Shown one piece after another: positions 1 to 17,247 of a DNA stretch of 64,000 bases. Within the stretch, counting starts at the first letter, position 1. Every line of letters starts with the position of its first letter. The notes under the pieces were generated by a model that worked only from the letters and a program-made list of their open reading frames with translations, searched no databases and had not been told where the DNA came from. This DNA is from Eubacteriales bacterium (GTDB lineage Bacteria > Bacillota > Clostridia > Oscillospirales > CAG-272): the NCBI GenBank assembly GCA_045636465.1, contig JAZTXP010000044.1, forward strand, positions 628 to 64,627, read 5' to 3'. The position numbers and the translations under genes were made by a program.

Positions 1-81
1 AAAAATACCCCCTCAAAACGCCATTCCCATGGCTTATAGGTGAAGGCGCACCCGTCTTACACTTTTTCAGGAGGTACGAAG

Positions 82-396
82 ATGTTACCACTTAACGCAA
101 TTCGAGAAGATTTGAAGGAGATCCGCTACTACTACGCACGCAAGGAGATTTTCGATGCGGCTATCGGCGGTATCGGGCTTAACAAGGTTTTGGATACGGT
201 GAAAAAATATAACACCGCTGTTCAGAACGCACCGCCGAGGCTCTATGACCTTTATATCTGCCTGTACGTGAAGAACTACACGCAGGAGGGCTTGTCAATC
301 GAGCTTGGATATACCCCCGAATATATCCAGATGCAACACAAAAAGCTCCTGCTTTTCCTTCAATCTTACTTTAAGAGCGAGGACGAAAGAAAATGA
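82..396 (+). CDS. Small sigma-70 region-4-like HTH regulator (ArpU/RinA/DUF1492-like mobile-element transcription factor)
   Basis: AGGAGG lies 7 nt upstream of the ATG at 82, which I prefer over the GTG at 40. The C-terminal segment YTQEGLSIELGYTPEYIQMQHKKLL resembles the region-4 HTH of small phage/ICE sigma-like factors. Confidence 0.5.
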   Translation: MLPLNAIREDLKEIRYYYARKEIFDAAIGGIGLNKVLDTVKKYNTAVQNAPPRLYDLYICLYVKNYTQEGLSIELGYTPEYIQMQHKKLLLFLQSYFKSEDERK

Positions 397-638
397 AGCA
401 GACGCCGGATTTTATGCTAAACGCTACGAACGTTTACCGTACTCCCCACTTTATCGTCAGGCAAAGGCTATCTATCCTTTGCAGCGAGGAAGAAAACAAT
501 GCAGTTATAAGCCGAGATACATTCTATAAAAGAACACCGGCACGTAACGCAGAGTACGAGGAAATTTTCAAAAAGCGTGAGCAGATAGACGGAAAAAGGC
601 TTCCCTCGTCGGGCTACATTCGAGAGTACCGAGAGTAA
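393..638 (+). CDS. Hypothetical small protein, translationally coupled to the upstream regulator
   Basis: ATGA start/stop overlap with the previous ORF. No recognisable motif. Confidence 0.35.
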   Translation: MKQTPDFMLNATNVYRTPHFIVRQRLSILCSEEENNAVISRDTFYKRTPARNAEYEEIFKKREQIDGKRLPSSGYIREYRE

Positions 639-664
639 AAAGACGGGTGCGGCTTCAAAAAACA

Positions 665-697
665 CTTTGGTTTCATTTGGGGTAAAGTTTGGGTAAA
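665..697 (-). repeat. Left iteron array: three tandem 11-bp units (ctttggtttca, tttggggtaaa, gtttgggtaaa), inverted relative to the array at 10700-10732
   Basis: Read directly from the sequence. The reverse complement of 676-697 (tttacccaaactttaccccaaa) matches 10700-10721 with one mismatch. The period is 11 bp. Confidence 0.75.
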
Positions 698-818
698 CAG
701 ATAGATTCTGCAAGTTTAGTTTTGATTACGTTGGGATAGAGTTTCTGGTTTTTGCCCGACAAATACCCTACAATGAAAGCGTAACCGACAGCTACCGATT
801 TACGATTATGGCGCTTGG

Positions 819-844
819 AGCTTGCAAGCTAAGGTGGCCACCTT
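819..844. promoter_or_regulatory. Two adjacent perfect palindromes: agcttgcaagct (819-830) and aaggtggccacctt (831-844). Candidate operator or ssDNA hairpin element.
   Basis: Both palindromes were checked base by base. They lie in the 300-nt non-coding leader upstream of the first gene of the module. Confidence 0.5.
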
Positions 845-952
845 CCATAGCACAATCGCCGGGAACAGAGTTTCAAGGAGCGTTCAGGTTACGAAAACAA
901 CTGAATAGCCTACGGGCAAACAAAATCTACAAATCACAGGAGGATTTTTTAA

Positions 953-1236
953 TGGCTAAAAAGGCAGCCACCGCCGAGGGCGGAAACAAGTACAATCAGC
1001 GCAGATGGGCGATCCCCTCTAAGCGTGCAAAGAACTATGCTGCTGAGCGTAAAGCAAAGGTGCATCAGCGAGGTCCCAAAGAAGGTCGTGAATTAACTGA
1101 TTACGAGGCAGGTATCCGTTCCGGCTACTTGCAGGCACAGACCGACCACGCCGGACTGTATAAGTACAAAAAGGCAATTTCCGAGGGTAAATCCAAGGCA
1201 GAGGCACGTGAAATTTCACAAAGAAAATCAAAATAA
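953..1236 (+). CDS. Small lysine/arginine-rich protein (94 aa), possibly nucleic-acid binding
   Basis: AGGAGG lies 8 nt upstream of the ATG at 953. The longer ORF from 808 has no RBS and crosses the palindromes. The composition is very basic. Confidence 0.55.
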
Positions 1237-1259
1237 TCTAATAGGAGGTATCAAATTTA

Positions 1260-1628
1260 ATGTCTAAAGAAAAGAAGATTTTTGTAGAAAGAGAAACCTA
1301 CACAAAGAACGAAAAGGAGTATTTCACCTATTTTATCAAAGGTAACATCCGTGGCAGAGACGTAAGGATCGCAATTATGCCCCCTGCAGACGGAGCAAAG
1401 GCTGACTTCAACGGCTATATGGTTCTTGATATCGTATTCGGTAATCAGATGAAGGCTGACTTCGTTCTTGAGCCCTTCGAGTTCAAGGATGCCAGCGGCA
1501 GAACTGTATCCGGCAATAAGACGCTCGTCCGTACTGTAGATGAAAACGGCGAAGTTTACGAGTGCGAAATTAAGCCTGCTCGTAAGTCTGACAAAACACT
1601 ACTCAATATGCTTTTGGCACAAGCGTAA
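1260..1628 (+). CDS. Hypothetical soluble 122-aa protein (speculative candidate for an ssDNA-binding or structural role)
   Basis: AGGAGG RBS, no TM segment, and a strong hairpin follows it. The function was not recognised. Confidence 0.55.
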   Translation: MSKEKKIFVERETYTKNEKEYFTYFIKGNIRGRDVRIAIMPPADGAKADFNGYMVLDIVFGNQMKADFVLEPFEFKDASGRTVSGNKTLVRTVDENGEVYECEIKPARKSDKTLLNMLLAQA

Positions 1629-1644
1629 AGCATAATCACACAAC

Positions 1645-1680
1645 ACTTCGGCTTATGAATAGCATTTTATAAGCCGAAGT
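1645..1680. other. Perfect 12-bp stem (acttcggcttat / ataagccgaagt) with a 12-nt loop and no U-tract
   Basis: Read directly. An A-run rather than a T-run follows it on the plus strand, so it is not a canonical intrinsic terminator. Confidence 0.6.
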
Positions 1681-1724
1681 TAAAAAAACAACAATTTTAC
1701 AAACAAGGAGGATTTTTTAATCAA

Positions 1725-3134
1725 ATGAGCAAAGGAAGTATTATAGCAATTATTGCATCGGTACTTTTGGTTATTCTTCTCGTAGGCGGTCTTGCCACTT
1801 GGTTCGGTAACGGTGAAAATCCCTTCGAGGATATCTTCACTCCCGATGATCCCGTGGACGAGCCCATCGTATTCCCCGAGACAGAGTATAATCCCACGTT
1901 CGGTACTAACTTTAAGGAAGATTTTCCTATCGCTAATCTCACACTTAGAGATAATATGCAGGTAGCACCTTACGCATATGTGGATACCACTCTCTTCGCA
2001 GGTAAGAAGATTACCAAGATTGATGCACCCGTAGGTACAGTAAAGGCTGTTGACGAGAATCAGTATTTTACCCTCTGGGTAGTAAAGTCCGAAGCGGTTA
2101 AGGTAGGCGGTGATGTAACAGATTATGCGTACCGTCAGTATAAGATCTATCTTCCCAAGGAAGAGCTTACAGGCACTACCGTTAATAAGTGGATCACTAT
2201 TGACGTTTCCCACCTTAATATCTATGTAGACGAGGATGAAACTCTTGCATTTATGAAGTCTGACGACCCCGTTATCTGTTGCTATGCACAGGGTAAGCTT
2301 AACGATTTCGTTTATGACCTTGCCAATACCGGTAAGATTCAGGCATCTCAGAGCATCTACTACGGTATCTATACCGATGATTACGTAGATCTTGAGGGCA
2401 AGAAGCTCTCCATTCTCGGAGATAGCATTTCTACCTATTCAGGTGTAAGCAATAATGCTACAAGCACAAACAACACTATCGGCTCCAATGCCGTGTATTA
2501 CCCCAAAGCAGATATTAATGCTGCTGATGAAACATGGTGGAAGCAGACCGCAGATTATACGAATATGGACGTACTCGTAAACAACTCTTGGTCCGGTTCC
2601 CGTGTTCTTAATAACAACGGCGCTGCATATATCGACAGATGTGTTCAGCTCCACGATAACACCGGTGAAAATTCCGGTACAAATCCCGATGTAATTGCAG
2701 TTTACATTGGTATTAATGATTTCAACGCAGGTCTTAACTGTGGAGAGTTTAACGAGCTTGCAGACGTATATACCGAAGAAAACGGATATATCACACCTAC
2801 AAGCTTTGCAGAGGCTTATGCAATTATGATCCATAAGATGACCGAGAGATATGCAGATTCCAAGATCTTCATTTTCACTCTCCCTGCAAACGGTACGAAT
2901 AAGTACACAGCTCTTCTCGACGAGTATAATACAGAAATCAGAAAGATAGCAGAATACTTCGATTGTTATCTCGTAGATATCGCTGCTATCGAAGGCTATG
3001 AGTATGCTAAGTACACTAATGACGGTCTCCACCCCAATGAAGCAGGTATGGACCTCATTACAGATCACTTTGCAAGAATGCTCAAGGCTGTTTACGCAAA
3101 AGAGGCAGATAATGCCGACAACACAAACAAATAA
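1725..3134 (+). CDS. Membrane-anchored SGNH/GDSL-family hydrolase (esterase/deacetylase type)
   Basis: N-terminal TM segment IIAIIASVLLVILLVGGLATWF. SGNH blocks in order: LGDSIS (I), NNSWSGS (II), IGINDF (III), DGLHPN (V). Confidence 0.75.
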   Translation: MSKGSIIAIIASVLLVILLVGGLATWFGNGENPFEDIFTPDDPVDEPIVFPETEYNPTFGTNFKEDFPIANLTLRDNMQVAPYAYVDTTLFAGKKITKIDAPVGTVKAVDENQYFTLWVVKSEAVKVGGDVTDYAYRQYKIYLPKEELTGTTVNKWITIDVSHLNIYVDEDETLAFMKSDDPVICCYAQGKLNDFVYDLANTGKIQASQSIYYGIYTDDYVDLEGKKLSILGDSISTYSGVSNNATSTNNTIGSNAVYYPKADINAADETWWKQTADYTNMDVLVNNSWSGSRVLNNNGAAYIDRCVQLHDNTGENSGTNPDVIAVYIGINDFNAGLNCGEFNELADVYTEENGYITPTSFAEAYAIMIHKMTERYADSKIFIFTLPANGTNKYTALLDEYNTEIRKIAEYFDCYLVDIAAIEGYEYAKYTNDGLHPNEAGMDLITDHFARMLKAVYAKEADNADNTNK

Positions 3135-3158
3135 TTTTTATAAAGGAGGTACTCATGT

Positions 3159-3401
3159 ATGAGTAAAATCAGCTTAAAAAAGAATTCAGGTCCGAGACAG
3201 ATGTCTCGTAGAAAGTCCGATCTCATGGATGCTTATGATATCGGCTTTGCAAAGGGTTGGGACGATGCGTATCTCATCCCCAAGCGTATGGGTGCTCGCT
3301 CTAAGGCGGCAGAAGGCTACAAGAAGGGTATCAAGTCCCGTAGAATTGTAGACAAGTACATGGCTCAGTACAATCAGGGCAAATCCAAAATCAAGATGTA
3401 A
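3159..3401 (+). CDS. Small basic protein (80 aa) sharing a D-x-Y-x-x-G-x-x-x-G-[YW]-like motif with the 953-1236 product
   Basis: AGGAGG lies 9 nt upstream. Rich in K and R. Motif similarity: LMDAYDIGFAKGW versus LTDYEAGIRSGY. Confidence 0.55.
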   Translation: MSKISLKKNSGPRQMSRRKSDLMDAYDIGFAKGWDDAYLIPKRMGARSKAAEGYKKGIKSRRIVDKYMAQYNQGKSKIKM

Positions 3402-3423
3402 TTAAAAGGAGGTATCAAAACTA

Positions 3424-4482
3424 ATGATTAAACTTAACGAAAACCAGAGATTTATAGCACTTGCCGTAGCTGTGGTACTCCTCTTTGCAGGAGTATTCGC
3501 TTCGGTGGCTATGGATATCGCACAGACACAGGCTATCAATAACCTTGAAAAGGCACATTATGACCTTGACGACGTAACCGGTATGCTTAAGGCGGAGGAT
3601 TTCGAAACAGAAGTTCAGGCAGAGGCTATGTCCCGTGTAAAGATCAAGGCATCCACTCCTCGCCTTATGTCTAACCCCGATGCAGGTGTAGCAACCGTAG
3701 CTGAAACCTACGTAGCTCAGGAGCTTACTGCTACCATTTTCCCCAATACTGCAAGTAACATTCTTGTGGATTGGTCTGTAGCTTGGGAATCTACTTCTCA
3801 GACTGCGGATATCAATCAGTATATCACTCTCAATCCCACCTATGCAGGCTCTCGTGTATGCGAGGTAAGATGTCATAAGGCTCTTCCCGGCAACGCAGTA
3901 ATTACCGTAACCACAAGAGATGGCGGTCATACCGCTAAGTGTACTGTTAAGTTCGTAGGTATTCCTACCACTATGACAGTAACTAACTCTACTCTTGACA
4001 AAGATACCAGCGGTAATTACAAGGTTCCTATGTTCAAGCGTCAGACCTACAACTTCGATATTAACCTCGGTAATATCTTTAATTCTGTAGGTACAACTTA
4101 CAAGAACTATTCCGTAGTTTCCGTAACACCTTTCGGTAACATTATGGCAGGTTCTCAGTGTGATTACGGTGACGGTACAATAGATTGGTCCAGCGTAGTT
4201 AAGACCCCTCTTACTACCTATAAGAGCGACTTTACTGCAACTATTACCGGTTCTACTCTTAAGGTAAATATCCCTAACGTTAGCGGTCTTTACACTAACT
4301 ACAGCGAAACCTCTTCCGAGACAATGTATGACGATTACTTCTACAGTGCTATCGAGGGTGAGACCTGCGGCGTAACTGTTGTTGTAAAGAACACTTCCGG
4401 CCTTACTGCTACTGTAAAGATCGTCTTTGACTCTGATGCGGTTGTAAGTGTAAGCCTTGACGAGTCCAGCCTTACTTTCTAA
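3424..4482 (+). CDS. Membrane-anchored protein with a bacterial Ig-like (Big_2-type) domain
   Basis: N-terminal TM segment FIALAVAVVLLFAGVFASVAM. The segment LTATIFPNTASNILVDWSVAW...AVITVTTRDGGHTAKCTVKF follows the Big_2 pattern. Confidence 0.6.
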   Translation: MIKLNENQRFIALAVAVVLLFAGVFASVAMDIAQTQAINNLEKAHYDLDDVTGMLKAEDFETEVQAEAMSRVKIKASTPRLMSNPDAGVATVAETYVAQELTATIFPNTASNILVDWSVAWESTSQTADINQYITLNPTYAGSRVCEVRCHKALPGNAVITVTTRDGGHTAKCTVKFVGIPTTMTVTNSTLDKDTSGNYKVPMFKRQTYNFDINLGNIFNSVGTTYKNYSVVSVTPFGNIMAGSQCDYGDGTIDWSSVVKTPLTTYKSDFTATITGSTLKVNIPNVSGLYTNYSETSSETMYDDYFYSAIEGETCGVTVVVKNTSGLTATVKIVFDSDAVVSVSLDESSLTF

Positions 4483-4501
4483 TTAAGGAGGGGAGCAAGA
4501 A

Positions 4502-5071
4502 ATGAGTAGTAACGCAAAAACAATTATTGTCGCTATCATTTCTTTGCTTCTGCTCGTAGGCGCACTTGGACTCATAATTCACTTCACCGGGGGTGGTACC
4601 CACGACTTTGCCACGTTCTACCTTACTTATGGTGATCAGACAATAATGGATACCACTTCCGGCTTTGTTCTTAATCAGTACGAGGGCAATAGGTTTGACG
4701 TACACTATACCTTCGACGAGAGCAAGAAGAACGCTTACGACGTAGAAATTAAAGGAAATGATAAATACTCCTTTACCTATACCGTAGATGGTGAGGAATA
4801 CGAGTTTAACGGCGACACAGACTACACAGGATTCTTTGACGTAGTAGAATACGAAGACTATTTCACAGTAAATGGCTTGTATTCAATCAAGACTATACTT
4901 GTTGAAAGACATAATGGAGCTGAGGTAGAAATACCCGAGAGTGTCCCGGAGCACGCAGAGTTCTTCATTATGACGGTTAAATCAACAACTCAGGATTCCA
5001 AGATCACAATCTATCTGAAGACTGCTCCGATCCTTGACGAGATAGTTCTTCCCGAAGAGATCCTGTTCTAA
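4502..5071 (+). CDS. Single-pass membrane protein, unknown function
   Basis: GGAGG RBS. N-terminal TM segment TIIVAIISLLLLVGALGLIIHF. Confidence 0.55.
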   Translation: MSSNAKTIIVAIISLLLLVGALGLIIHFTGGGTHDFATFYLTYGDQTIMDTTSGFVLNQYEGNRFDVHYTFDESKKNAYDVEIKGNDKYSFTYTVDGEEYEFNGDTDYTGFFDVVEYEDYFTVNGLYSIKTILVERHNGAEVEIPESVPEHAEFFIMTVKSTTQDSKITIYLKTAPILDEIVLPEEILF

Positions 5072-5084
5072 GGGGGAGATGCAT

Positions 5085-7088
5085 ATGAGAACAGTAATAA
5101 CAAAAGCTTTATCGCTTCTCTCAATCGTATGCATCTTATTCTCTCTATTCACGTTAGGCGTTAGTGCCGAAACGGTAAAAAAAGAGGTCGTTACGGACTT
5201 TAGCAAAACTAACGTTCTTGACGACCTCGAGTCCTCAACTGTTAACGGTCAGTTATTTGATATAACAGATTATCCGTATTCAGAGCAGTTGGATATTAAG
5301 CTCATAACTATGGTTGAATATTGCTACTCCTTTGAGTCGGATAATCTCGACCATTACGGTCTATATCTTTACATCTACAATCCAAGAAACCTTACTATTG
5401 ATACAAGCAGCGGTGCTAATAAAATACAAATGGCAACTGCTTACGATAGCAAGGGTGTACCTACAAGGTATGATAAGTTCAATCTTCAATTCTGTAACAC
5501 CGTTGAGTCCGGCAACTACAAAAACCTTTTCTATAAGTTCAAAATAGTTGAAAAGGAGATCAACGGCACTACCTTTTACGATAGAGTTAATTCTAACGGC
5601 AGAAGGTACGATATCACAGGTATTGAGCTTAAGACTAAAGGTGCTACGAACGCTACCGAGTATTTTGTAGGCGGTACGTATATCTTCTCGGGATATGCTA
5701 AAGGCTTCGGTCCTGACAAAGAGGCAGAGTCCAATCTTACTTGTGTGGTAGAGGAGCTTGAAACCTTAAAGCTTTCGGTTCATCATACCAACTACAGAAC
5801 GGGCGTATCCGACAAAGGCGAGGACTACTACAACGAGGTAAACACCGTATATTTCTCAGTACCCGAAAGAGTATTCGAGCAATACGGCAACTTGCAGAAG
5901 ATCCGCGCCGAATGGTGGGAGTACAAGACTAAGATGGCTACTGTCACTTCAAACCAAGACTTCTATAATCAGCTTTTACAGTATGTAGGAACTGACGTAG
6001 GACAGTATAGTTCAAGCGTACCCGTCAAAATCTATTCGGGTTATGACGGAAGAGCATCCACAGGACCGGGCATTCCAACGTATCACGATTATCATTGGGT
6101 GTATAACGTAAATCTTGACACACAATATACATCCTTCGGTTCTATCTTTTCTGTTAGTAGTACAGATAAGCAATCAACAATTATGCCTTATGCTTTCTAT
6201 GCACCTGTTACAGACGTGGGTGGAGTCTTTGACTTTCTATCCTCAGATCCGGTTGCAGGTAGTGTATCAAGCAGCGTAGTTAGAGATTGGATATATAACT
6301 ATTCAAATAGTTTAGGACACGGCTACGTTGATTGCAACGGCAGACAGTTAAGCAAGGACTTGTTCGAGGATAGTGTTGACTCCGGTAGAACTATGGGCTA
6401 CAACGATAAGACCATAGACATGGGGGACACCTTCGATTTACTTAGCTATGACAGTAATCACTCTTGGTGGGAAAAACTATGGGACTATGGATTTTCGTGG
6501 CCCACAACAGACGAACAACACAAGGGAGTAATGCCTATCCATATTCTTGAAGCAGGAGACCTTATTGGCACTAATGCTACCATTTCGCAAAGGCTATTGG
6601 TTAAAGAGGACGACGTGGCGGCATTGAAGGAGTTTTACAAAACCGAAACAGCCAACGGTAATAGGGTTGTAATATTCCGTTTTGCAAGCACCGAGTATTA
6701 TTGCGCCCCGGCATTCACTTCGGCAGGCAGTAATATGGTAAGCTGCGATACATACGTAGCACAGCAGACGGTATTCTTCGACTTTGACATCATAGAGCTT
6801 ACCTTCAACAATGACGGTGCATACAGAGTTATTCCCGTTGTTTCAAGCCCTATAGATATAGTCAATGAATTCCAGCCACCGCCCGAGGAAGAACTTTTCG
6901 GCAACACCTCAGCCTTTTGGATGATAATTATAGCCATCATTATGCTTGTAATTATTATCATCATAGGACAGCCGGCACTTAACCTTCTTGTAGAACTTCT
7001 TATATGGATAGTGATGCTACCCATAAGGCTTATACAAGCCATAATTGACCTAATAACAGGAGGTGGGGATATCCCACCTGACGTATAG
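5085..7088 (+). CDS. Large secreted protein with a C-terminal membrane anchor (candidate adsorption / receptor-binding protein)
   Basis: Signal-peptide-like N-terminus ending GVSA/ET. The C-terminal 60 aa are strongly hydrophobic (FWMIIIAIIMLVIIIIIG...LLIWIVMLPI). I prefer the second ATG (5085) because of its spacing to GGGGGAG. Confidence 0.6.
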   Translation: MRTVITKALSLLSIVCILFSLFTLGVSAETVKKEVVTDFSKTNVLDDLESSTVNGQLFDITDYPYSEQLDIKLITMVEYCYSFESDNLDHYGLYLYIYNPRNLTIDTSSGANKIQMATAYDSKGVPTRYDKFNLQFCNTVESGNYKNLFYKFKIVEKEINGTTFYDRVNSNGRRYDITGIELKTKGATNATEYFVGGTYIFSGYAKGFGPDKEAESNLTCVVEELETLKLSVHHTNYRTGVSDKGEDYYNEVNTVYFSVPERVFEQYGNLQKIRAEWWEYKTKMATVTSNQDFYNQLLQYVGTDVGQYSSSVPVKIYSGYDGRASTGPGIPTYHDYHWVYNVNLDTQYTSFGSIFSVSSTDKQSTIMPYAFYAPVTDVGGVFDFLSSDPVAGSVSSSVVRDWIYNYSNSLGHGYVDCNGRQLSKDLFEDSVDSGRTMGYNDKTIDMGDTFDLLSYDSNHSWWEKLWDYGFSWPTTDEQHKGVMPIHILEAGDLIGTNATISQRLLVKEDDVAALKEFYKTETANGNRVVIFRFASTEYYCAPAFTSAGSNMVSCDTYVAQQTVFFDFDIIELTFNNDGAYRVIPVVSSPIDIVNEFQPPPEEELFGNTSAFWMIIIAIIMLVIIIIIGQPALNLLVELLIWIVMLPIRLIQAIIDLITGGGDIPPDV

Positions 7089-7098
7089 AGGAGGAAAA

Positions 7099-7194
7099 AT
7101 GAAAACGATTAAGAGAATTATTGCAGTATTTCTCCTATTCGTGCTTCTCTGGGTGGTCGGTTATCTGATCTTTACAGGTAACCGATTACCTTAA
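7099..7194 (+). CDS. 31-aa single-TM peptide (MKTIKRIIAVFLLFVLLWVVGYLIFTGNRLP), candidate minor or major coat-like peptide
   Basis: Not in the ORF track because it is under 60 aa. GAGGAGG lies 5 nt upstream. It fills the gap between two genes exactly. Confidence 0.45.
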   Translation: MKTIKRIIAVFLLFVLLWVVGYLIFTGNRLP

Positions 7195-7213
7195 AGCAGA
7201 GAGGAGGAATGTT

Positions 7214-9346
7214 ATGAAAGCAAAAATAGACGTTAAAAAGATGATTTGTATTATTGCTTCGGTGATTTTTACAATTTTCTTCATATACCTTGCCATATCC
7301 CACTTCAGTAATTCTTATCTAAGACTTGGAGAGACATTCGGTGACCTTTGGAACTCAATGAAATACTATTTCTTTGAGATATTCGAGATGGATCACGATA
7401 CGGTCGCCACAGTCAAAGATTATTCAGAGATTATGAAGTGGGATGTTTCTATTCCCGAGACTCCCGAAGATGCAAAGGTTGATATAGATAACTATATGAA
7501 TCTGCTTGTAGATAAAGAAAACCTTAACTATTACAACTACACCGTAGGAGTAAAGATAGGAGATTTTGCGAGGCTATTACTAATTTTGCTCCCGTTTGGA
7601 GTATTACTTGTAATTTTGATTAAGATGCTTTATCTGAGACCTAACCACAAGCATGGCAAGGAAACAATGCCGCTTATAGTGTTTAAGACTATAACAAAAT
7701 ATACATATCACCCGGTAAAACGAGTGATTTTAGGGTATTGGAGCTTCTTACAGGAAAACAGAAACATACTAAACCTATGGCTTATAATTTGGCTTATGAA
7801 CCTGAACCTTATGAGCATTATTGTAGCCTTCGTTGCTTACTATCTCTACTTCTCGGTAAGCTGCGATATTTTAGGCTTATACGGTCAGTTGGTAAAGCTA
7901 ATACTCGACCTTGAGGTAGCAGTTAAAACGGTGCCACTCTACATATTTCTTCCGTTCCTTTGGGTAATGTTTGAGAATTTCAGACGGACAATAGCCGCCG
8001 GTATTCTTAATCACTTTGAAATGAAGAATAGAGGCTTTATTAACTCACTCCCCATTGTGTCTATGACCTGCGGCAGTATGGGTAAGAAGAAAACAACGCT
8101 TATTACAGATATGGCTCTATCCCAAGAGGTAATGTTCAGACAAAAAGCGTACGAGCTACTAAAGGTAAACGATATGCGCTTTCCCAACTTCCCTTGGATA
8201 TGCTTTGAGTTAGACCTTCGTACTGCTATGGATTACGGACAAGTCTATAATTTAGCCACCGTAAGAGAATGGGTTGAGAAGAAGCGAGCAAGATACGAAA
8301 AGCATGGTGATCCAAAGAAAAGACTCTACGGATATGACGTTCAGAGGTACGGTGAATGGTATGACGATAACCTCAAAATATGGCATATTTATGACGTGCT
8401 ATATAACTATGCACAGTTATACTTTATCTACGTTATAGAATCCTCGCTTATTGTTTCAAACTATTCCATAAGGACGGATAACGAGCTAATTGATGCAGGT
8501 AATTTTCCCAAATGGGCTTGCGATTTCTTCCCGGAGTTCACCAACGATGAAGGACGCTATTCCCATATCCTTGACTTTGACGTTCTCAGGCTCGGCAAGA
8601 AGGTTATTGAGAACAACCCCAACGCAGGCAGCTTTGAGTTCGGTGTAGTAGTAATATCCGAGGTAGGTAAAGAGCGAGGTAATAACCTTGAGAATAGAGA
8701 GATTAAACGGAATACCGATCAGACAAATCAGAAAAACGACCTTTTCAACTCTTGGCTTAAGATGTGTAGGCATTCTGCGACCGTAGATAACTATCCCTTC
8801 ATTAAGGTATTTACTGACGAGCAAAGACCTGAAAGCTGGGGTGCAGATGCAAGAGATCTCTGCGACATCCTCTACATAGAATCTAACGGCAAACAGAAGC
8901 TTGCCATGCCTTTCTATACCATAGAGGAAATGCTTGTGGAATGGGCTTTCAAGGGCTTTATTAACCTTTATTATATGATGCGTTATCTTCGTGGAGATAC
9001 TACGCTTTTCATATACGTATTAAAGCTCATAACCTCTTGGCTCTACCAAAGGAACGCAGGACTTTACAACCGCTTTGGATACTGTCTTACACATATAGCA
9101 AAAGAGCGAGGAACGATGGATGGCGAGGCTGAAAAGAAGAAATATTACGTAATTAACAAGAAGATATACAGTAGAAGATTTACAACAGACTGCTTTAGCG
9201 ATTACTTTAATGAACTTGCGAGAAAATCTCATATAGGACTTAACGATTATATTGAATACGAAACCGAACGAGCGAGTGTAGAGGAACTTAAAATGCAGAA
9301 CAGCTATTTTATTAACGCACTATATTCAAACGCAGGCTCTAACTGA
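7214..9346 (+). CDS. Polytopic membrane protein with a C-terminal deviant P-loop NTPase-like domain (candidate assembly/extrusion ATPase, Zot/pI-like in function)
   Basis: About five hydrophobic helices lie in residues 1-255. They are followed by GSMGKKKTT (nt 8072-8098), a Walker-B-like VVVISE, and MCRHS...VFTDEQ, which resembles the HRH...TQ segment of Zot-family ATPases. Confidence 0.45.
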   Translation: MKAKIDVKKMICIIASVIFTIFFIYLAISHFSNSYLRLGETFGDLWNSMKYYFFEIFEMDHDTVATVKDYSEIMKWDVSIPETPEDAKVDIDNYMNLLVDKENLNYYNYTVGVKIGDFARLLLILLPFGVLLVILIKMLYLRPNHKHGKETMPLIVFKTITKYTYHPVKRVILGYWSFLQENRNILNLWLIIWLMNLNLMSIIVAFVAYYLYFSVSCDILGLYGQLVKLILDLEVAVKTVPLYIFLPFLWVMFENFRRTIAAGILNHFEMKNRGFINSLPIVSMTCGSMGKKKTTLITDMALSQEVMFRQKAYELLKVNDMRFPNFPWICFELDLRTAMDYGQVYNLATVREWVEKKRARYEKHGDPKKRLYGYDVQRYGEWYDDNLKIWHIYDVLYNYAQLYFIYVIESSLIVSNYSIRTDNELIDAGNFPKWACDFFPEFTNDEGRYSHILDFDVLRLGKKVIENNPNAGSFEFGVVVISEVGKERGNNLENREIKRNTDQTNQKNDLFNSWLKMCRHSATVDNYPFIKVFTDEQRPESWGADARDLCDILYIESNGKQKLAMPFYTIEEMLVEWAFKGFINLYYMMRYLRGDTTLFIYVLKLITSWLYQRNAGLYNRFGYCLTHIAKERGTMDGEAEKKKYYVINKKIYSRRFTTDCFSDYFNELARKSHIGLNDYIEYETERASVEELKMQNSYFINALYSNAGSN

Positions 9347-9390
9347 CGGCGTTACGGTTAAATCCAAAGGTCTGCGTAAAAAGGAGGTAT

Positions 9391-10464
9391 ATGGCTTATG
9401 CCGAAGCGAAGGTCTATTTTGATGGGAGTCACTATATAGCGATACCCCACACAACAAGACCATCAAAAGCAAGATGCTCACCATTGGAAGAAAGAGTTGA
9501 GGTTAAAGCCGACACTCTTAAAGACAAATTTATTGAAAATGCGACAGAAAGCACGGCCCCTTTACCGGGGTACGTGCCTTTTGAGCTGGAAGAAATTGAA
9601 GTTGATGATATTGAAGATGTTTTTGGAGCATTTGAAAATAATGAAACTGATGAATCTGATAATAACGCCCCCGAATCCCCTTCACCAAGATTTGCTACTA
9701 AAAAAGAAATTTTTGAAGAGCATTACAAAGAGTGTTGTCATATGCGAAGGCACGAACGCAAAAAGGCTTTGATAGAAAGGATGCGTCCGTATTTTGATAC
9801 GGAGGAAAAAACACGACTTTACGTTACTGTCAACATTGAGCGAAAACTGCGTAATCTTATTTGCAGAAGAATAAGGCTTTCAAGGAAGGCAAATCTACAA
9901 GAGTTCAATTATTTCTGCACGTTTACTTACAATGATAAACTCCACGACGAAGAAAGCTTTAAGAGAAAGCTAAGACATACCATCTCGAATTTCAGCAAAA
10001 GAAAAGCGTGGAAATACATAGGTGTATGGGAACGCTCTCCCGAAAAGAAACGCCTTCATTTTCACGGTCTATTTTATATTCCTGATGGCACGATGCCGGG
10101 CATTTTAATTCAAAAAGAAGATTATAATTTTAATACCAGAAGGCGACAGATAACCAATCAAAACACCTATTTTAACGAAAAGTTTGGTAGGTCAGACTTT
10201 GAGAGTATTGACGAACCGAGTCGAAAAGGTACAGCATTAGCGTATATAATCAAGTATATTGAAAAAACAGGAGAGAAAATCGTTTACTCTAAAGGACTGC
10301 CTCAATTTTTCATCTCAGATATTCTCGAAAGTGATGTTGTAACTACCATAGGATCAGAAGATACAAAGCTGTTATTATTTGATGATTTCAGCTGCATTGA
10401 CGAGGGGTGCTATATAGGTGTCGTAAGCTCTGACGTGATAGAGCAACTTCGTAAAGCCAACTAA
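9391..10464 (+). CDS. Rolling-circle replication initiator (HUH endonuclease, two-tyrosine phiX174-A-like type)
   Basis: Motifs in canonical order: FCTFTY (I), RLHFHGLFYI (HUH, II), AYIIKYIEK (III, Y285 and Y289 at nt 10243 and 10255). Compare the phiX174 A protein motif YVAKYVNK. Confidence 0.75.
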   Translation: MAYAEAKVYFDGSHYIAIPHTTRPSKARCSPLEERVEVKADTLKDKFIENATESTAPLPGYVPFELEEIEVDDIEDVFGAFENNETDESDNNAPESPSPRFATKKEIFEEHYKECCHMRRHERKKALIERMRPYFDTEEKTRLYVTVNIERKLRNLICRRIRLSRKANLQEFNYFCTFTYNDKLHDEESFKRKLRHTISNFSKRKAWKYIGVWERSPEKKRLHFHGLFYIPDGTMPGILIQKEDYNFNTRRRQITNQNTYFNEKFGRSDFESIDEPSRKGTALAYIIKYIEKTGEKIVYSKGLPQFFISDILESDVVTTIGSEDTKLLLFDDFSCIDEGCYIGVVSSDVIEQLRKAN

Positions 10465-10532
10465 AAATCAAAAATTACATAAGGGCTCAAACAAAGGTTT
10501 TAACAACGCAACTTTTAACCGACAGAAGAAAC

Positions 10533-10572
10533 AACGGGCGAGTCGGCAAGCGGTTTAGCGCCGCCGCCCGTT
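10533..10572 (+). terminator. GC-rich hairpin (aacgggcg / cgcccgtt, 24-nt loop) followed by a T-rich tract. Possible rep terminator or ori-associated structure.
   Basis: Read directly. It lies 70 nt downstream of the rep stop codon. Confidence 0.35.
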
Positions 10573-10618
10573 CTTTGTCGGTATTGCGTTTCCTTTGTTC
10601 CGTTTGTTTTTGTTTTTT

Positions 10619-10681
10619 GGGCGTGTGCTTGGCTCGGCGGAGCGCAGCGACTCCGACTTGTATCAAGACAAGCACACGCCC
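10619..10681. promoter_or_regulatory. Candidate plus-strand origin: 13-bp perfect GC-rich stem (gggcgtgtgcttg / caagcacacgccc) with a 37-nt loop containing ACTTG/TATCAAG
   Basis: The stem was verified base by base. It is markedly GC-rich in an AT-rich locus. It lies directly between rep and the iterons, the usual RCR ori layout. Confidence 0.5.
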
Positions 10682-10699
10682 TGTAGTCACACACCTAAC

Positions 10700-10732
10700 T
10701 TTACCCAAACTTTTCCCCAACTTTACCCAAAC
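10700..10732 (+). repeat. Right iteron array: tttacccaaac, ttttccccaac, tttacccaaac (3 x 11 bp)
   Basis: Read directly. It sits 19 nt downstream of the GC-rich hairpin and is an inverted copy of 665-697. Confidence 0.75.
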
Positions 10733-10783
10733 TGTAACTGACATAAAAAAAGGGAGAGCTTTTTACACTCTCCCTATCAAGTA

Positions 10784-11098
10784 TTACGTTGTAAATAGAC
10801 CATAGATTTTATCGTATAGCGTAATCGCTTTACAAGGTCGCTCTTGATATGTCATTTCCTGTATTTCGGGTTTACCTTTATCAATTGCACGAAGCATTAT
10901 TTTGTTCGATAACTCTTTAAGTGTCGGGAAGGTGCTTTCGATAATGTTCTCATTAGCACCGACTTCAAGTATCTTGAAGCCTTTTTGCACGAGGTATGAG
11001 CTGAACTGCCAAAGCTTCTCAAACATACCGTTTGAGTCAAGTATCACCGATATATCTTTTTCTGGGTGATACGCTGTAATTCTAAAGTAATTTGCCAT
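10784..11098 (-). CDS. Hypothetical protein (104 aa), last gene of the minus-strand accessory operon
   Basis: AGGAGG RBS 7 nt upstream. No motif recognised. Confidence 0.5.
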   Translation of the reverse strand: MANYFRITAYHPEKDISVILDSNGMFEKLWQFSSYLVQKGFKILEVGANENIIESTFPTLKELSNKIMLRAIDKGKPEIQEMTYQERPCKAITLYDKIYGLFTT

Positions 11099-11111
11099 TT
11101 GTAAGTCCTCC

Positions 11112-12425
11112 TTATGCGGCTATTTTCTTTAACTGCCTTTTTGCGTATGGCAGCCATTTGGTGTTTATGTATGTAGTAATGTCATCTGCCGGCTTTGTAT
11201 TGCCGTTTGCATAACATTGTAGTATCTTCTTTGATCTCAACGAGTATTCCATAGTAACAAGTGGAACGTCTGGTGCGTCTGCACTACGAATAAAGAATAT
11301 AAGCGTTTCTTCACGAGCGAATTTTTGCTCATATCCCATTCTTCCGACACAGTGGTGTAATGCTTCACCTTCAGCCTTAAGCTCCGCCGGACTCTTTGCT
11401 ATGATAACAAGATAAGCAGTATTTTTGTCCTTTTGCATAGGCAGATACTTTTCTGCAACAGCATTAAACTTTTCGTAAAACTCAGCACGTTCCTTTTTAT
11501 CGTTTTCGATCCTTAATGCGTTGGCTTCATCAACACGAATGTCGTGCCAATGCATAAAATCATGTGGATAACGATTTTTAGGCTCGTCCATATTCAAGCC
11601 GAGATATATACAAGCCTTTGCGTAGTCAAGATATAATCTATGCGACAGTTTTTTACTGCGGATATATTCAAAGTATTTCTTGTAATCACCCTTAATGACG
11701 TCACGAATAGGCTTAAAATCTTTCTCTCGACAGAAGCATTTTTTCTCTTGCTCGAATTTTTGTGTTTCGTCAAGAGGTGTACCTCTGCGATAGGATGCGA
11801 GGATTGTGGAAACGTAATAGTAATTTCTTTTTAGTTCATCACGGTTACGGGCAATCCATTTTCTGAACTTCTTATCCTTGCCGAGCTTTTGGAGAAGTTG
11901 TATACTATCTGCATATCTTTCAAGACCGAGCTTAACAACATATTCAACCTGCGGATATTTATTATAGATGCGAAGATATTTGAGAATATCTAAGTATGGA
12001 TACTGCTCCCAAGCGGCATATTTGTATTCCGGTAATTTTGCAAGGTATTCTTTATTTACTAAGGGAGCCCATGGATCAAAGTATTTATCATAGTTCCACC
12101 CCCATTCTTTATCTTCATACCATCTCGGAGTTTTTGAAAGTCCTTCTTCATACCAACCTACAGAAAGCGTCCCCATAAAGTGTCGGCACAGGTCTTTTAC
12201 AAAGCATATATCCGAGTCAATGCCGTGTATAGCAACCTGTTTGTAATGCCAATCGTTTCTGTTGTTTCTGACAGCTACTGTAACTTTAACAAGCTCACCG
12301 TCATTTTTAGTAAGATATGAATAAAATCTTACTTGCTTTGTAGGTTTTTTTACTTGCTGATTATCCAGCTTTTTGATCTTTTCAACTATATATTTAGGAA
12401 CGGGCTTAATCTTTTCCATCTTCAT
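11112..12425 (-). CDS. PcfJ-like protein
   Basis: The C-terminal EGEALHHCVGRMGYEQKF...LIFFIRS...VTMEYSL...ILQCYANGN matches the PcfJ-domain signature. TAATG overlap with the upstream PcfK-like gene, as in pCF10-type pairs. Confidence 0.65.
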   Translation of the reverse strand: MKMEKIKPVPKYIVEKIKKLDNQQVKKPTKQVRFYSYLTKNDGELVKVTVAVRNNRNDWHYKQVAIHGIDSDICFVKDLCRHFMGTLSVGWYEEGLSKTPRWYEDKEWGWNYDKYFDPWAPLVNKEYLAKLPEYKYAAWEQYPYLDILKYLRIYNKYPQVEYVVKLGLERYADSIQLLQKLGKDKKFRKWIARNRDELKRNYYYVSTILASYRRGTPLDETQKFEQEKKCFCREKDFKPIRDVIKGDYKKYFEYIRSKKLSHRLYLDYAKACIYLGLNMDEPKNRYPHDFMHWHDIRVDEANALRIENDKKERAEFYEKFNAVAEKYLPMQKDKNTAYLVIIAKSPAELKAEGEALHHCVGRMGYEQKFAREETLIFFIRSADAPDVPLVTMEYSLRSKKILQCYANGNTKPADDITTYINTKWLPYAKRQLKKIAA

Positions 12426-13417
12426 TACAATCTCACCTCCAAGTCATTACCAAACAATCCTGATATAGCAGCGATAAGCTCTTTTTCTTCACGCTTACGC
12501 TTTTCGTCAATGCTTTCATTTTTGCTTTCTTCTTCGGGCATTTCAATTACTTCTCCCGTTTCTATATTTACAGTACCTTTAACCGCGGATTTTACAGTAA
12601 GGTCATCGTTTTCTGCTATAATCAAGGTCAAGCCCTTATCGGTCAACTTATCGTAATAAACGTCTGCTCTATGATAGGGGAATCCAACCATCGGGACTCT
12701 GTGTTTTAGTCCCATATCACGACTTGTAAGAGTAAGCTCTATAAGTTCGCTTACTTGTACTGCGCCATAACCGAACACTTCATAAAAATCTCCAATACGC
12801 ATACAAACCACGTAATCGGGATATTGATTCTGAATAGCCATATATTTTTGGAACAGCGGCGAGCCTTTTGGATCTTCTTCTACGACCACCTCTACCGGCT
12901 CTGCTATGGGTTCTTCAACTACCGTTTCAATAGTTTCTTCAACGACTTCTTTAACCGTTTCTTCCGTATCATTAACAACGGGAGTATCGTTTGAAAAATC
13001 AAAGAGCGATAACTGTTCCGACTCCGGCTTTTTAGCTACGGGCGGTGTATATGTAGTTGTAAGTGTTGTAGTTGTTTTCTTAACAACAGGCTTCGGTGCT
13101 TTATACTCGCTGCCGTCCTCGTTGTAGAGCATACCAATGATGCTTTCTTCCTCGAAATAGTGGATAGCCCAACCGAAAACAACGTCGCTTCTGACACAAG
13201 CCGCTGAAGCACCTTTTTCTGCTTGCTTTCTTGCTTCATCTGTTGCATATTTCATAAAGCCATCAAGCGTTTTTTTGTTGATAAGAGTTTTACCGTCTTT
13301 TTCAATATGGACACCGTTATTTATCTTTTCTGCAAGCGTTTCACTTGCATTTTCTTCAAGATATTTCTTAATAAGTTCTTGTTCTGTACCTTTTGCGGTG
13401 AGATTTAATGTAATCAT
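12425..13417 (-). CDS. Fusion protein: PcfK/AcrIIA9-like N-terminal domain, acidic T/V/E-rich linker with a QLSLF beta-clamp-binding motif, and MutS domain I (mismatch-binding domain)
   Basis: N-terminus: LIKKYLEENASE...ACVRSDVVFGWAIHYFEEESI (PcfK-like). QLSLF at nt 13001-13015. Residues 185-270 (SPLFQKYMAIQNQYPDYVVCMRIGDFYEVF...VPMVGFPYHRADVYYDKLTDKGLTLIIAE) align colinearly with E. coli MutS [30 protein letters not shown]...[29 protein letters not shown]. Confidence 0.75.
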   Translation of the reverse strand: MITLNLTAKGTEQELIKKYLEENASETLAEKINNGVHIEKDGKTLINKKTLDGFMKYATDEARKQAEKGASAACVRSDVVFGWAIHYFEEESIIGMLYNEDGSEYKAPKPVVKKTTTTLTTTYTPPVAKKPESEQLSLFDFSNDTPVVNDTEETVKEVVEETIETVVEEPIAEPVEVVVEEDPKGSPLFQKYMAIQNQYPDYVVCMRIGDFYEVFGYGAVQVSELIELTLTSRDMGLKHRVPMVGFPYHRADVYYDKLTDKGLTLIIAENDDLTVKSAVKGTVNIETGEVIEMPEEESKNESIDEKRKREEKELIAAISGLFGNDLEVRL

Positions 13418-13720
13418 TTATAAGTCCTCCTTTTTATTGTTTTTCGTAAAAGAACAAAAAGCCCCTTTCTGTTTCCAGAAGGGTACTTCATGCCAGATGC
13501 CATCTCTGAACTCTGACTTCTTTATTGGTATGATAACCCACTCGGGCTTTTTAAGCGGGCGATTAGATAAGGTTGCCAACGACGGAAAGCGTAAATACAT
13601 TTCTTTCATCTCCTTAGCTTCTCTATAAGTGCGAGTAATAAACCGTCTTATGTAGTTTTTACAGCCTTTTTCTTTATAGCAGACCTTATAGCCATACGGA
13701 TTATGTAAATTAGGCTTCAT
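13418..13720 (-). CDS. Small strongly basic hypothetical protein (100 aa)
   Basis: ATGA overlap with the upstream gene. Basic composition within an otherwise acidic operon. Confidence 0.45.
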   Translation of the reverse strand: MKPNLHNPYGYKVCYKEKGCKNYIRRFITRTYREAKEMKEMYLRFPSLATLSNRPLKKPEWVIIPIKKSEFRDGIWHEVPFWKQKGAFCSFTKNNKKEDL

Positions 13721-14253
13721 ACAACACCGTATAACCTTTCTGCCACTCTTGGCAAAGCCGAGTAGAAGTTAGTATTCATAATCGTGTTATGCAGCTCTCG
13801 ATCGTGAGCAAAGTAGTTTCTATCGGCAAACTCATAACCCTTTTTAGTAAGTTTTTTAAGCTCATAGCTGTCCGAACCGTCGTGATGATGTCCAGAAATG
13901 AAAAAATGACCGTTTTCATCATAGAACTTAACAAAGTCCAAATGACGAATACAGTCAAGCAGATCATCTATACTACGAATAAACTTACCACCACGAGAAG
14001 GACCGTCCCACCTACCACACGTTCCTGTAAGCAGGTAACAATCCTTTTCGAGTAAATACTCAAGATCGGCTCTGAAGTCATCCCAATCTCGGCGCTGCTG
14101 TTCTTCCATCTCGTGATAAACTACGCAGTCGGGAATCTCTTCTTCTGATATCCAGCCTTCTTCTTCGGCAAAAGTTTCAAACAGATAATTCTTAACCGAG
14201 TTAAAGCTTTGAACGTCGTTATCATCATAAAATACAGTGGTTTTAGTTTTCAT
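13717..14253 (-). CDS. Hypothetical acidic protein (178 aa)
   Basis: AAAGGAG RBS. No motif recognised. Confidence 0.5.
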   Translation of the reverse strand: MKTKTTVFYDDNDVQSFNSVKNYLFETFAEEEGWISEEEIPDCVVYHEMEEQQRRDWDDFRADLEYLLEKDCYLLTGTCGRWDGPSRGGKFIRSIDDLLDCIRHLDFVKFYDENGHFFISGHHHDGSDSYELKKLTKKGYEFADRNYFAHDRELHNTIMNTNFYSALPRVAERLYGVV

Positions 14254-14268
14254 TTTTATTCTCCTTTC

Positions 14269-14520
14269 TTATAAAATATCTTGCATAGCACTAAGGATTT
14301 CACCTTCTAAGTCAAATTCGTTAAGCTCTTCTTCGATAATTTCCTTAACATAATCTTCTAAGATAGGATCAATATCGACCTTATCAACTTTACTACGAAT
14401 AGCATCGGTGACAAGTCCTTCAATATCAAGTCTATCCAGAGCATTGTCTATAGCTTCTTCAAAATCAAAGCTATCAACAGCTTCGTGTATTTTTCTGCTG
14501 AGTTTTTCTTTGAATGTCAT
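14269..14520 (-). CDS. Small highly acidic hypothetical protein (about 83 aa)
   Basis: The start at the fifth codon (14520) avoids overlap with the upstream stop at 14523. Rich in D and E. Confidence 0.45.
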   Translation of the reverse strand: MTFKEKLSRKIHEAVDSFDFEEAIDNALDRLDIEGLVTDAIRSKVDKVDIDPILEDYVKEIIEEELNEFDLEGEILSAMQDIL

Positions 14521-14522
14521 TT

Positions 14523-15149
14523 TTAGTCCCATCCTTTCTCTTTGAATATCGGGAATATTTCTGCATAATTGTCTGTTGCCAAGGGAGAATTATCTTCAAT
14601 GCTTATTTCATCCCACGCCCACATTCCAACAAGGTCTGAAGAAGAATCATCGCTGTGATAAGTGTAATCTCCACCACCGAGTCCGTTACCTACACAAGTA
14701 AGTAAAGGGAGTGGGTGTAAACACCAGCCTTCACCCATAACGCTGTCGTTATAGTAGTTTGAACAGGTTATGTATTCTTTCTTAGTATGATTTATGAGAT
14801 ATTTTCCCTCAAGCGTAAATTCGGTTGTAGGAATGGCTATTGACGTATCTGGTTCACACCAACATCTCGTGTGATAATGCTTTATTTTCTTTTTCGTGAG
14901 TCCATTGTGAGGCTCAACAAGGTTATCTGCAAATTGGTCTGCATAATCGCCCATCCAAATAATACGAGAGCGTTTTGCATTTTCGTATATACTCTGACAA
15001 ACTGCATTGACAAAGGGGTTATACCACCACGAGTGTTCTGTGAGTTTTGCCATCATATATTCTTCTTTTCCGTCAACGATTATATTGCGGTTATAAACGG
15101 TAAGCTTTCCGTTACCTTCTTTTTTAAGTGCCTTGTAATATTGTCCCAT
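14523..15149 (-). CDS. Hypothetical protein (208 aa)
   Basis: AAAGGAG RBS 7 nt upstream. Contains GNGLGGGDY. Function not recognised. Confidence 0.5.
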   Translation of the reverse strand: MGQYYKALKKEGNGKLTVYNRNIIVDGKEEYMMAKLTEHSWWYNPFVNAVCQSIYENAKRSRIIWMGDYADQFADNLVEPHNGLTKKKIKHYHTRCWCEPDTSIAIPTTEFTLEGKYLINHTKKEYITCSNYYNDSVMGEGWCLHPLPLLTCVGNGLGGGDYTYHSDDSSSDLVGMWAWDEISIEDNSPLATDNYAEIFPIFKEKGWD

Positions 15150-15167
15150 TTTATATCTCCTTTCTGA

Positions 15168-15575
15168 TTAAACAACTCTCATTATGCCTCCACCCATACT
15201 TCTAACACCTATTGTGCCGAACTCTGAGCAGTAGTCATCGTCTTTATTCCAAACGTAAGAAAAAGCGTAATGTATTCCACCTTCTGTATAGCAAAGTTTT
15301 TTCCATTCGCTCTTGTAATTAGTAACTATAAGGAAAGAGTAAAGCTCACCAAACTCTGTAAATTCGTGAGTAATGGCGTAAACGGTGCAGTTGTGTTCTT
15401 TTTCAATTTCCTTCATTTTGTTGTAAAGCTCGGGTTCCTGATCAACCCAAAAGCCGCCGAACATTTCAAAGAAGCATACTTGGTCTTTCTTCTCAAAGCC
15501 GATTATGTAGGGCTTATAAATATCCATCTGCTTCAAAATCTCAATACCTTTTACTTTTCTTTCTTCGTGTGTCAT
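15168..15575 (-). CDS. Hypothetical protein (135 aa)
   Basis: AAGGAG lies 8 nt upstream of the internal ATG at 15575, which I prefer over 15605. Confidence 0.5.
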   Translation of the reverse strand: MTHEERKVKGIEILKQMDIYKPYIIGFEKKDQVCFFEMFGGFWVDQEPELYNKMKEIEKEHNCTVYAITHEFTEFGELYSFLIVTNYKSEWKKLCYTEGGIHYAFSYVWNKDDDYCSEFGTIGVRSMGGGIMRVV

Positions 15576-15591
15576 TTTTAATACTCCTTTT

Positions 15592-16155: not shown

Positions 16156-16246
16156 CAAAATCACCTCCTTCCAATTCCAATTTTTCTTCAATTCTGTCTT
16201 TTGCTTCTTCAAGCAATTCTTCTAAATCAATGATAGGCTTTGTCAT
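16136..16246 (-). CDS. Possible 36-aa acidic peptide (MTKPIIDLEELLEEAKDRIEEKLELEGGDFDAYNSK)
   Basis: TAATG coupling to the upstream gene and an AAGGAG RBS. It overlaps the ardA start by about 20 nt. Below the ORF-track size cut-off. Confidence 0.3.
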   Translation of the reverse strand: MTKPIIDLEELLEEAKDRIEEKLELEGGDFDAYNSK

Positions 16247-16479: not shown

Positions 16480-16497
16480 TTTTTATATCTCCTTTTC

Positions 16498-17238: not shown

Positions 17239-17247
17239 ATTTCCTTT

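Follow-up and report, generated by a model that had tools for sequence, protein, structure and literature searches.

Paired inverted arrays of 11-bp repeats at a putative rolling-circle origin and upstream of a promoter-like motif in a temperate element of gut Clostridia

Control of both an origin and a promoter by one initiator is best known from small eukaryotic ssDNA viruses and plasmids. The iterons of geminiviruses and CRESS-DNA viruses are short, lineage-specific repeats beside the origin stem-loop, which are bound by the HUH Rep and also control the Rep promoter. In theta iteron plasmids, Rep binds direct iterons at the origin and inverted iteron-like repeats at its own promoter. The OL and OR regions of phage lambda are two mirrored triplets of operators (17-bp palindromes) bridged by the repressor, 2.4 kb apart at divergent promoters. 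For the small plasmid pMV158, it was found that members of the plasmid family share a conserved nic locus and that three tandem 11-bp direct repeats form the high-affinity bind locus of RepB; no remote second copy of the repeats upstream of a promoter is described there (PMC1851628).

We identified a locus that resembles the pMV158 origin in a 64,000-nt stretch of DNA (the window): it has an HUH initiator gene (rep), a family-conserved hairpin and, a short distance 3′ of the hairpin, element-specific tandem direct repeats (3 × 11 bp; the right array). A second array of such units (the left array) lies about 10 kb away in inverted orientation (Table 1). Our best reading is that the variant seen here combines origin iterons with a remote copy upstream of a promoter, within a large family of putative temperate rolling-circle elements. 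Unlike the Rep_2 initiator of pMV158, the Rep found here is a PF23343 protein (phiX gpA/G2P-like) with a two-tyrosine YxxKY motif; its putative origin is downstream of rep, the distance from the base of the hairpin to the repeats is 18 nt (in pMV158, 84 bp counted from the nick), and an integrated temperate element of ~17 kb or more takes the place of the small plasmid. The short lineage-specific repeats adjoining an origin stem-loop are also similar to those of geminiviruses and CRESS-DNA viruses, but there the iterons serve origin and promoter from one compact intergenic region, whereas the copies here are ~10 kb apart and inverted. As in theta iteron plasmids, the same putative recognition sequence is found at the origin and at the rep-operon promoter; replication mode and Rep fold are different, and a tandem array upstream of the −35-like motif takes the place of an inverted pair that overlaps the promoter. 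Similar to lambda OL/OR, there are triple sites, mirrored, at two distant places in a temperate element whose relatives encode an S24-type repressor, but here 11-bp direct repeats form the units, and one of the sites adjoins a putative rolling-circle origin instead of a promoter.

Table 1. Positions of the arrays, the putative regulatory and origin features, and the surrounding genes in the window.
Feature	Position	Strand	Description
Left array	665-697	+ (G-rich strand)	ctttggtttca / tttggggtaaa / gtttgggtaaa; intergenic, between o393 (393-638) and the o808 gene
Promoter-like element	743-774	+	−35-like TTCTGGT (743-749), 19-nt spacer, −10 TACAAT (769-774)
Leader, conserved, probably structured	779-951	+	~170 nt, from the promoter-like element to the true start of o808
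Co-directional gene block between the arrays	952-10464	+	o808, o1260, GDSL-lipase-like gene (1725-3134), o3159, o3424, o4502, o5079, o7214, rep
rep	9391-10464	+	HUH rolling-circle initiator; PF23343 REP_ORF2-G2P, E 1.1e-10
Second hairpin	10520-10580	+	Loop CAAGCGGyTyAGCG; DNA fold −18.5 kcal/mol, z −3.9
Origin hairpin (putative)	10619-10681	+	63 nt; DNA fold −23.8 kcal/mol, z −3.3
Right array	10700-10732	− (G-rich strand)	tttacccaaac / ttttccccaac / tttacccaaac; starts 18 nt 3′ of the origin hairpin
Intrinsic terminator of the convergent minus-strand block	10751-10775	−	End of the rep-ori block, start of the variable cargo junction
Convergent block	10784-16848	−	104-aa ORF, PcfJ (11112-12425), PcfK+MutS_I fusion (12425-13417), ArdA (15592-16212)
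tRNA-Ser(GGA)	17248-17339	−	Probable right element-host junction
Aspartate kinase, host gene	17513-18829		Beside tRNA-Ser

The array pair is real, non-random and functional-looking. The left array has two good units (676-686 and 687-697) and a degenerate one (665-675). The right array is the top tandem repeat of the region 600-11000 (Tandem Repeats Finder: 10697-10733, period 11, 3.4 copies, score 60), and the left array is under the threshold of the program because only two of its units are good. The inverted arms (662-697 and 10700-10735; 36 nt, 83% complementary) are the longest inverted pair within 1-13000. A repeat search reproduced the gap of 10,002 nt between the arrays given in the original prediction, and the best units of both arrays point inward, as was also proposed; the inner 22 bp, said to match with one mismatch, differ at two positions (676-697 versus 10700-10721). 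Searching the 64 kb for the 22-mer with up to three mismatches found these two sites only (chance expectation 0.00, from 100 shuffles), in agreement with the claim that there are no further copies, and TTTGGGTAAA occurs exactly three times in the 64-kb window, every time inside the arrays. The left intergenic region matches the post-rep region with a score of 21, compared to 9.3 ± 1.1 for shuffled sequences. The 22-mer was not found in a viral contig collection either, and with the motif confined to the arrays in the window, the suspicion that it might be a dispersed repeat of the host genome does not hold.

Both arrays are also found in related loci (designated here by L numbers). The left array is unchanged in L009, L010, L013 and L019 (the L009 group) and has one change in L084; the right array is kept in L003-L005, and L008 and the four members of the L009 group have a two-unit version of it. 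The arrays are 9.6-9.8 kb apart in the L009 group, 8.4 kb in L017, and 9.1-9.3 kb in L021 and L052; because these other paired lineages span 8.4-9.8 kb, the 10.0-kb spacing seen in the window is incidental.

The region 3′ of rep contains, in this order, the second hairpin, a T-rich tract, the origin hairpin, the right array, and the terminator. The original prediction mentioned a hairpin beside the right array, which we found at the position of the origin hairpin. Its outer stem is ~13-15 bp long (GGGCGTGTGCTTG / CAAGCACACGCCC) and is followed by a covarying inner stem-loop; comparison of more than 50 relatives revealed compensatory changes in 8 out of 21 predicted pairs (at the base of the outer stem and in the inner stem-loop). 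Across these relatives, the hairpin sequence (GCGTGTGCTTGTC...GACAAGCACACGC) hardly varies, even where Rep identity is only ~52-58%. A 13-nt stretch in its 3′ part (ACTTGTATCAAGA, 10656-10668) stays unpaired, and is a candidate for the nick region. The assembler depth over the hairpin (10620-10680) is 115-248x, compared to ~8-25x nearby, with many contig branch points (runs X1, X2, and X5), which means that single gut samples contain many related elements with this hairpin sequence.

The 70 nt after the origin hairpin show a significant self-periodicity of 10-12 nt in 18 out of 54 dereplicated lineages (~2.7 expected by chance), mostly at a shift of 11. The repeated motif differs by lineage; for example, L036 has five copies of AGGGATAATCN, and others have GGGACAC, GTAACCT..TGTGA, or CCTTAC. 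Clear tandem periodicity is limited to about a third of the lineages, and repeats abutting the origin hairpin are found in many lineages without the left array or the internal promoter. Upstream of the origin hairpin (~115 nt from its 3′ arm), the second hairpin is present in 61 of the 67 loci, with an invariant loop and covarying stems; we consider it a candidate for a single-strand (minus-strand) origin or another ssDNA signal. The TAGCG in its loop recalls the CS-6 element of ssoA-type single-strand origins. We also noted an apparent second copy of the origin at the left end of L064 and L075 (a direct match, TGTATCAAGA...); this match is located where a coding region starts, is not continued by further similarity, and was judged to be due to chance.

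The Rep protein has the motifs LHFHG (residues 222-226) and Y285-x-x-K-Y289. Its AF2 model (pLDDT 70) contains an HUH-like core with weak structural matches to the nuclease domains of viral Reps; a Foldseek search of the PDB with this model returned nothing at E ≤ 0.001, and the N-terminal part matches no known DNA-binding fold. The ordered parts of Rep are fairly conserved, and a hypervariable stretch (residues 42-99) is acidic and predicted to be disordered. Since the hypervariable stretch is disordered and the ordered parts are conserved, approximately residues 113-146 would be the only plausible carrier of lineage specificity. In this segment, the window shares 65% identity with the L009 group, which has the same array class, and 21-50% with most others; L082 and L021 do not fit this pattern.

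The left array is located 45 bp upstream of a promoter-like motif, which heads a ~9.5-kb operon that ends in rep. The consensus (T/C)(T/A)(C/G)TGGT-N19-TAnAnT-N6-GTAA(C/T)C recurs in several lineages downstream of their own arrays, and relatives with a short o393-o808 spacer have neither the left array nor the motif. Because a generic sigma-70 scan called no promoter between 639 and 807, we infer promoter function from this conservation. Simple occlusion is unlikely, since the array is 45 bp upstream of the −35-like motif and not over the promoter. The motif is followed by the leader, which is found in nearly all relatives. Its features are a palindrome with covariation (GGTGGCCACC / GAGTGGCCACTC / GAGCGGCCGCTC), a hairpin formed by GGAAAC..GTTTC, and a stretch, ACAACTNAATA, that does not vary; the leader had no Rfam match at E ≤ 1, and is a candidate cis-RNA at the head of the ~9.5-kb operon. 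The true start of o808 is the ATG at 952, with the RBS AGGAGG ~8 nt upstream; the listed ORF (808-1236), which starts at 808, reads through the leader, and this start is probably spurious.

Two small proteins similar to sigma-70 region 4 are encoded before the left array: o40 (40-396), which has a weak match to sigma-70 region 4 (TIGR02937, E 0.016), and an ORF of ~165 aa left of the window start. The second sigma-region-4-like ORF is found just upstream in L009, L010, and L013 (~470-960). Given the non-canonical −35 sequence TTCTGGT, a dedicated sigma-like or activator system is possible. In addition, an 18-nt inverted repeat (17 out of 18 positions; 41-58 and 640-657) flanks o40-o393, each arm being a small hairpin; directly next to the left array, the right arm resembles a terminator of minus-strand transcription.

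All genes between 40 and 10464 are on the plus strand, with rep in the last position. The order o40-o393-[left array]-o808-o1260...o5079-o7214-rep-[hairpin]-[right array] is collinear in about 50 loci of Christensenellales/Clostridia, with or without the left array, and positions 1-1612 of the window share 86-88% identity with the L009 group, uninterrupted across the left array. The left ends of other relatives (L105-L124, L090, L096, and L070) encode a large serine recombinase, a 69-aa ORF, a LexA-like S24 repressor, a UmuD-like S24 protein, a Y-family polymerase (IMS) and YolD, in this order, before o40/o393; in L097 a tyrosine integrase replaces the serine recombinase, and small HTH or sigma-region-4-like proteins are also encoded at the left end of relatives. 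This left-end gene set looks like an SOS-type regulatory and mutagenesis module within the element. To the right of the origin, relatives have variable cargo, followed by the PcfJ block. In our reading, the element is a single integrated, temperate, rolling-circle element of gut Clostridia, ~17 kb or more in length, and the arrays are internal to it, not its borders: they are internal because synteny is conserved on both sides of them, and the ends of the element lie elsewhere, given the recombinase and the LexA-like repressor to the left in relatives and the tRNA-Ser gene to the right, at position ~17.3 kb. A Bacteroidetes conjugative transposon with arm-type integrase sites, considered from the GC content and PcfJ/PcfK, was rejected, as the relatives are all Clostridia/Christensenellales and the arrays are internal. 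We likewise rejected prophage att sites, as the arrays are inverted and internal, the junction is near the tRNA-Ser gene, and the recombinase end is left of the window start in relatives.

Searches with Rep found 238 matches in species-representative genomes, nearly all of them Clostridia/Christensenellales MAGs from guts, and across public data the relatives of Rep form at least 4,822 protein clusters, none of them named; the phage collection contains a single record, unannotated, the plasmid collection has no match, and literature searches returned nothing specific on this element family. The Rfam search of 1-17600 returned the tRNA and sub-threshold noise only. Nine proteins of the element (o40, o393, o808, o1260, o3159, o3424, o4502, o5079, and o7214) have essentially no sequence matches in Pfam, PHROGs, NCBIfam, or PDB. 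Among them, o3424 carries a TM segment at the N terminus, o5079 combines a signal peptide with a TM anchor at the C terminus, and o7214 has a multi-TM N-terminal part (with a weak Nad4L-like match at 162-266), followed by a P-loop-like GSMGKKKT and hhhhSE motifs. The region o3424-o7214 (3424-9346) looks like export, morphogenesis, or transfer machinery without a known family match. The genes of the minus-strand block are templated on the plus strand, just 3′ of the origin hairpin, a layout that recalls a conjugative leading region, or early genes on incoming ssDNA.

We compared the left intergenic region of each locus to the reverse complement of its own post-hairpin 75 nt, with all unrelated loci as controls. 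The window has an inverted self-match of 24, compared to a control maximum of 15 (z 7.9). The inverted self-match beats every control in the L009 group (z 5.3-6.1), L017 (z 5.0), L074 (z 5.4), L021 and L052 (z 7.7-7.9), and L038 and L044 (z 3.0-3.4). In the direct orientation the match never beats the controls, except in L021 (z 3.4), whose motif is partly palindromic. Overall, at least five lineages have matching motifs at both sites by this statistic, and three more by eye (L007, TAAGGG/CCCTTA; L069, TTGGTTT/AACCAAA; and L098, GTAAGAG three times and CTCTTAC twice); the motifs are always inverted. The paired motifs vary by lineage and include TTTGGGGTAAA, ATGGAAAAGTT, TCACATTGAGGTTACA, AATGTTC, and TTTAAC..CCTA..AAC. 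The number and spacing of the units can differ within one element: L009 has three units on the left and two on the right, and the units of L074 and L098 are spaced differently at the two sites. Since unit number and spacing differ between the sites, the similarity resides in single units of the size that a protein would cover and does not amount to a continuous duplex. Five further loci (L115-L117, L100, and L125) carry the promoter motif with no convincing match between their two sites. According to the original prediction, homologous elements lacking the left copy would speak against the pair; many relatives do have no left array, but those that have one carry their own motif at both sites. 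Lineage-specific motifs that change together at both sites, always in inverted orientation, suggest one lineage-specific DNA-binding protein.

The reading we favor, to which we give about an even chance, is that the arrays are origin iterons and a remote operator, that is, two putative sites of one lineage-specific DNA-binding protein in a temperate rolling-circle element. The right array would be the iteron (bind-type) part of the double-strand origin, and the left array a second copy of the same iterons, upstream of the promoter-like motif of the rep operon. The most likely binder would be Rep. From the origin iterons, Rep would be well placed to extrude the hairpin and nick it, in the manner of RepB on pMV158; bound to the left array, it could feed back on the transcription of its own operon and couple expression to the level of the initiator (here we infer binding, binder and sign of regulation alike). 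If the protein must turn the same face to its partner at either site, the constant inversion follows, since the promoter and the hairpin are both on the inner side. We name Rep as the first candidate because of the origin-adjacent repeats in lineages without a left site, the 11-bp direct-repeat format, and the precedents of pMV158 and the CRESS-DNA viruses. Part of the original prediction of Rep-binding iterons is retained in this proposal: tandem repeats beside a conserved hairpin near rep behave like origin iterons, but they are not the limits of a mobile module. Mantel-type tests, which were underpowered, revealed no significant correlation of array similarity with the identity of seven Rep segments (all rho ≤ 0.12); similarly, array similarity was not significantly correlated with o40, o393, o808, o1260, o7214, or whole Rep (rho ≤ 0.12), in tests that were also underpowered. 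The window and the L009 group have the same array class, and share 56-58% identity in Rep and 91-99% in the left block (o40, o393, and o808); a reader encoded in the left block would fit equally well, since the array class is shared between loci with 91-99% identical left blocks despite 56-58% identity in Rep.

Such a reader leads to a less likely but serious alternative: both arrays may be operators of a lineage-specific regulator distinct from Rep. This regulator would act on the promoter of the structural/rep operon and on the origin together, either to silence them in lysogeny or to activate them late. It could be the LexA/CI-like S24 repressor that relatives encode near their left end, o40, or the ~165-aa protein left of the window start. 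The gene set left of o40 in relatives (recombinase, LexA-like S24 repressor, UmuD-like protein, Y-family polymerase, and YolD) is in line with such a regulator, as are the weak sigma-70 region 4 match of o40 and the second sigma-region-4-like ORF in L009/L010/L013, and lambda OL/OR is a precedent for mirrored triple operators at two distant sites. The near-identical left blocks and shared array class of the window and the L009 group, with Reps of 56-58% identity, point the same way, and the fast turnover of the arrays, uncorrelated with Rep, resembles the divergence of immunity regions. The repeats abutting the origin in many lineages without a left array or internal promoter, however, argue for an origin-centred function. 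Dimeric CI/LexA repressors bind palindromes, whereas tandem direct 11-bp units are typical of RCR initiators; moreover, o40 and o393 are present with or without the left array, and o40 similarity does not track array similarity (rho 0.085, p ~0.13). A further reading, which we regard as unlikely, is that the sites form an obligate inverted pair over ~10 kb, with the binder bridging the origin and the operon promoter (looping or handcuffing) or setting polar boundaries, switching the firing of replication and the expression of the structural/transfer operon together; in the boundary form, over-replication from the integrated state would be restricted to the segment between the arrays.

In a related but quite unlikely explanation, the arrays act as a pair, either as polar barriers or as sites for looping (handcuffing), and would confine replication and transcription of the ~10-kb segment or couple the two; one way would be to set the limits of in-situ rolling-circle copying of the integrated element. 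The detected pairs are inverted in every lineage and never direct, with the best units inward, as expected under this explanation, but inward-facing partners (promoter and hairpin) account for the inversion more simply; unit number and spacing differ between the sites, many relatives manage without the left site, and metagenome contigs, a poor test, show no depth step or junction at the arrays. The original prediction also proposed transposon-like termini, a segment that inverts or excises, or two halves of a long ssDNA stem, and the arrays do form an inverted repeat around a block with an HUH protein. We consider this group of explanations very unlikely, since synteny of both flanks with the interior is kept in ~50 loci, some of which have no left array, and the recombinase and the ends of the element lie elsewhere. 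Transposon-like termini are difficult to reconcile with flanks that are 86-88% identical through the left array in the L009 group and a gene order kept in ~50 loci; inversion finds no example among the loci with o393 and o808-rep on one contig, all of which are collinear; and neither an excision nor an inversion junction (665/10732) was found in contigs of four metagenome/metatranscriptome runs over 1-12000, a weak test as it covers contigs only. A long ssDNA stem is unlikely because the similarity is at the level of repeat units, not of extended complementarity: the arms are 83% complementary over 36 nt in the window, and only the unit cores match in L009, L074, and L098. A left copy without function, left over as a relic or similar by chance, is likewise highly improbable: one of its three units is degenerate and many relatives do without it, but zero matches are expected by chance, independent lineages match at the same two positions with different motifs, and four relatives have kept the left array exactly, in surroundings of 86-88% identity.

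The Rep family appears to be abundant in human and animal guts, yet it is undescribed in the collections and literature searched. The paired, co-varying arrays offer a testable handle on which protein sets replication specificity and on how an operon ending in rep is controlled, and they bear on whether iteron specificity keeps related elements apart in one cell. If Rep does bind to the two arrays, they would provide an example from bacteria in which a single initiator governs its origin and also a promoter far away; if the pair is obligate as well, it would represent a long-range device coupling origin and promoter in a large family of temperate rolling-circle elements of gut Clostridia. In addition, the arrays mark a fixed edge beside the cargo junction, which carries defence genes in relatives. 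The cargo hot spot (~10745-10797) is right of the array and the terminator, and compared to the window, L003 has an extra 4.7 kb there, L008 1.2 kb, and L011 7.3 kb. The cargo of L098 includes PC4-like, PAPS-reductase-like, and very large ORFs; in L100, the cargo comprises a type I restriction-modification system, whose hsdS genes shuffle, and a gene for a WYL protein.
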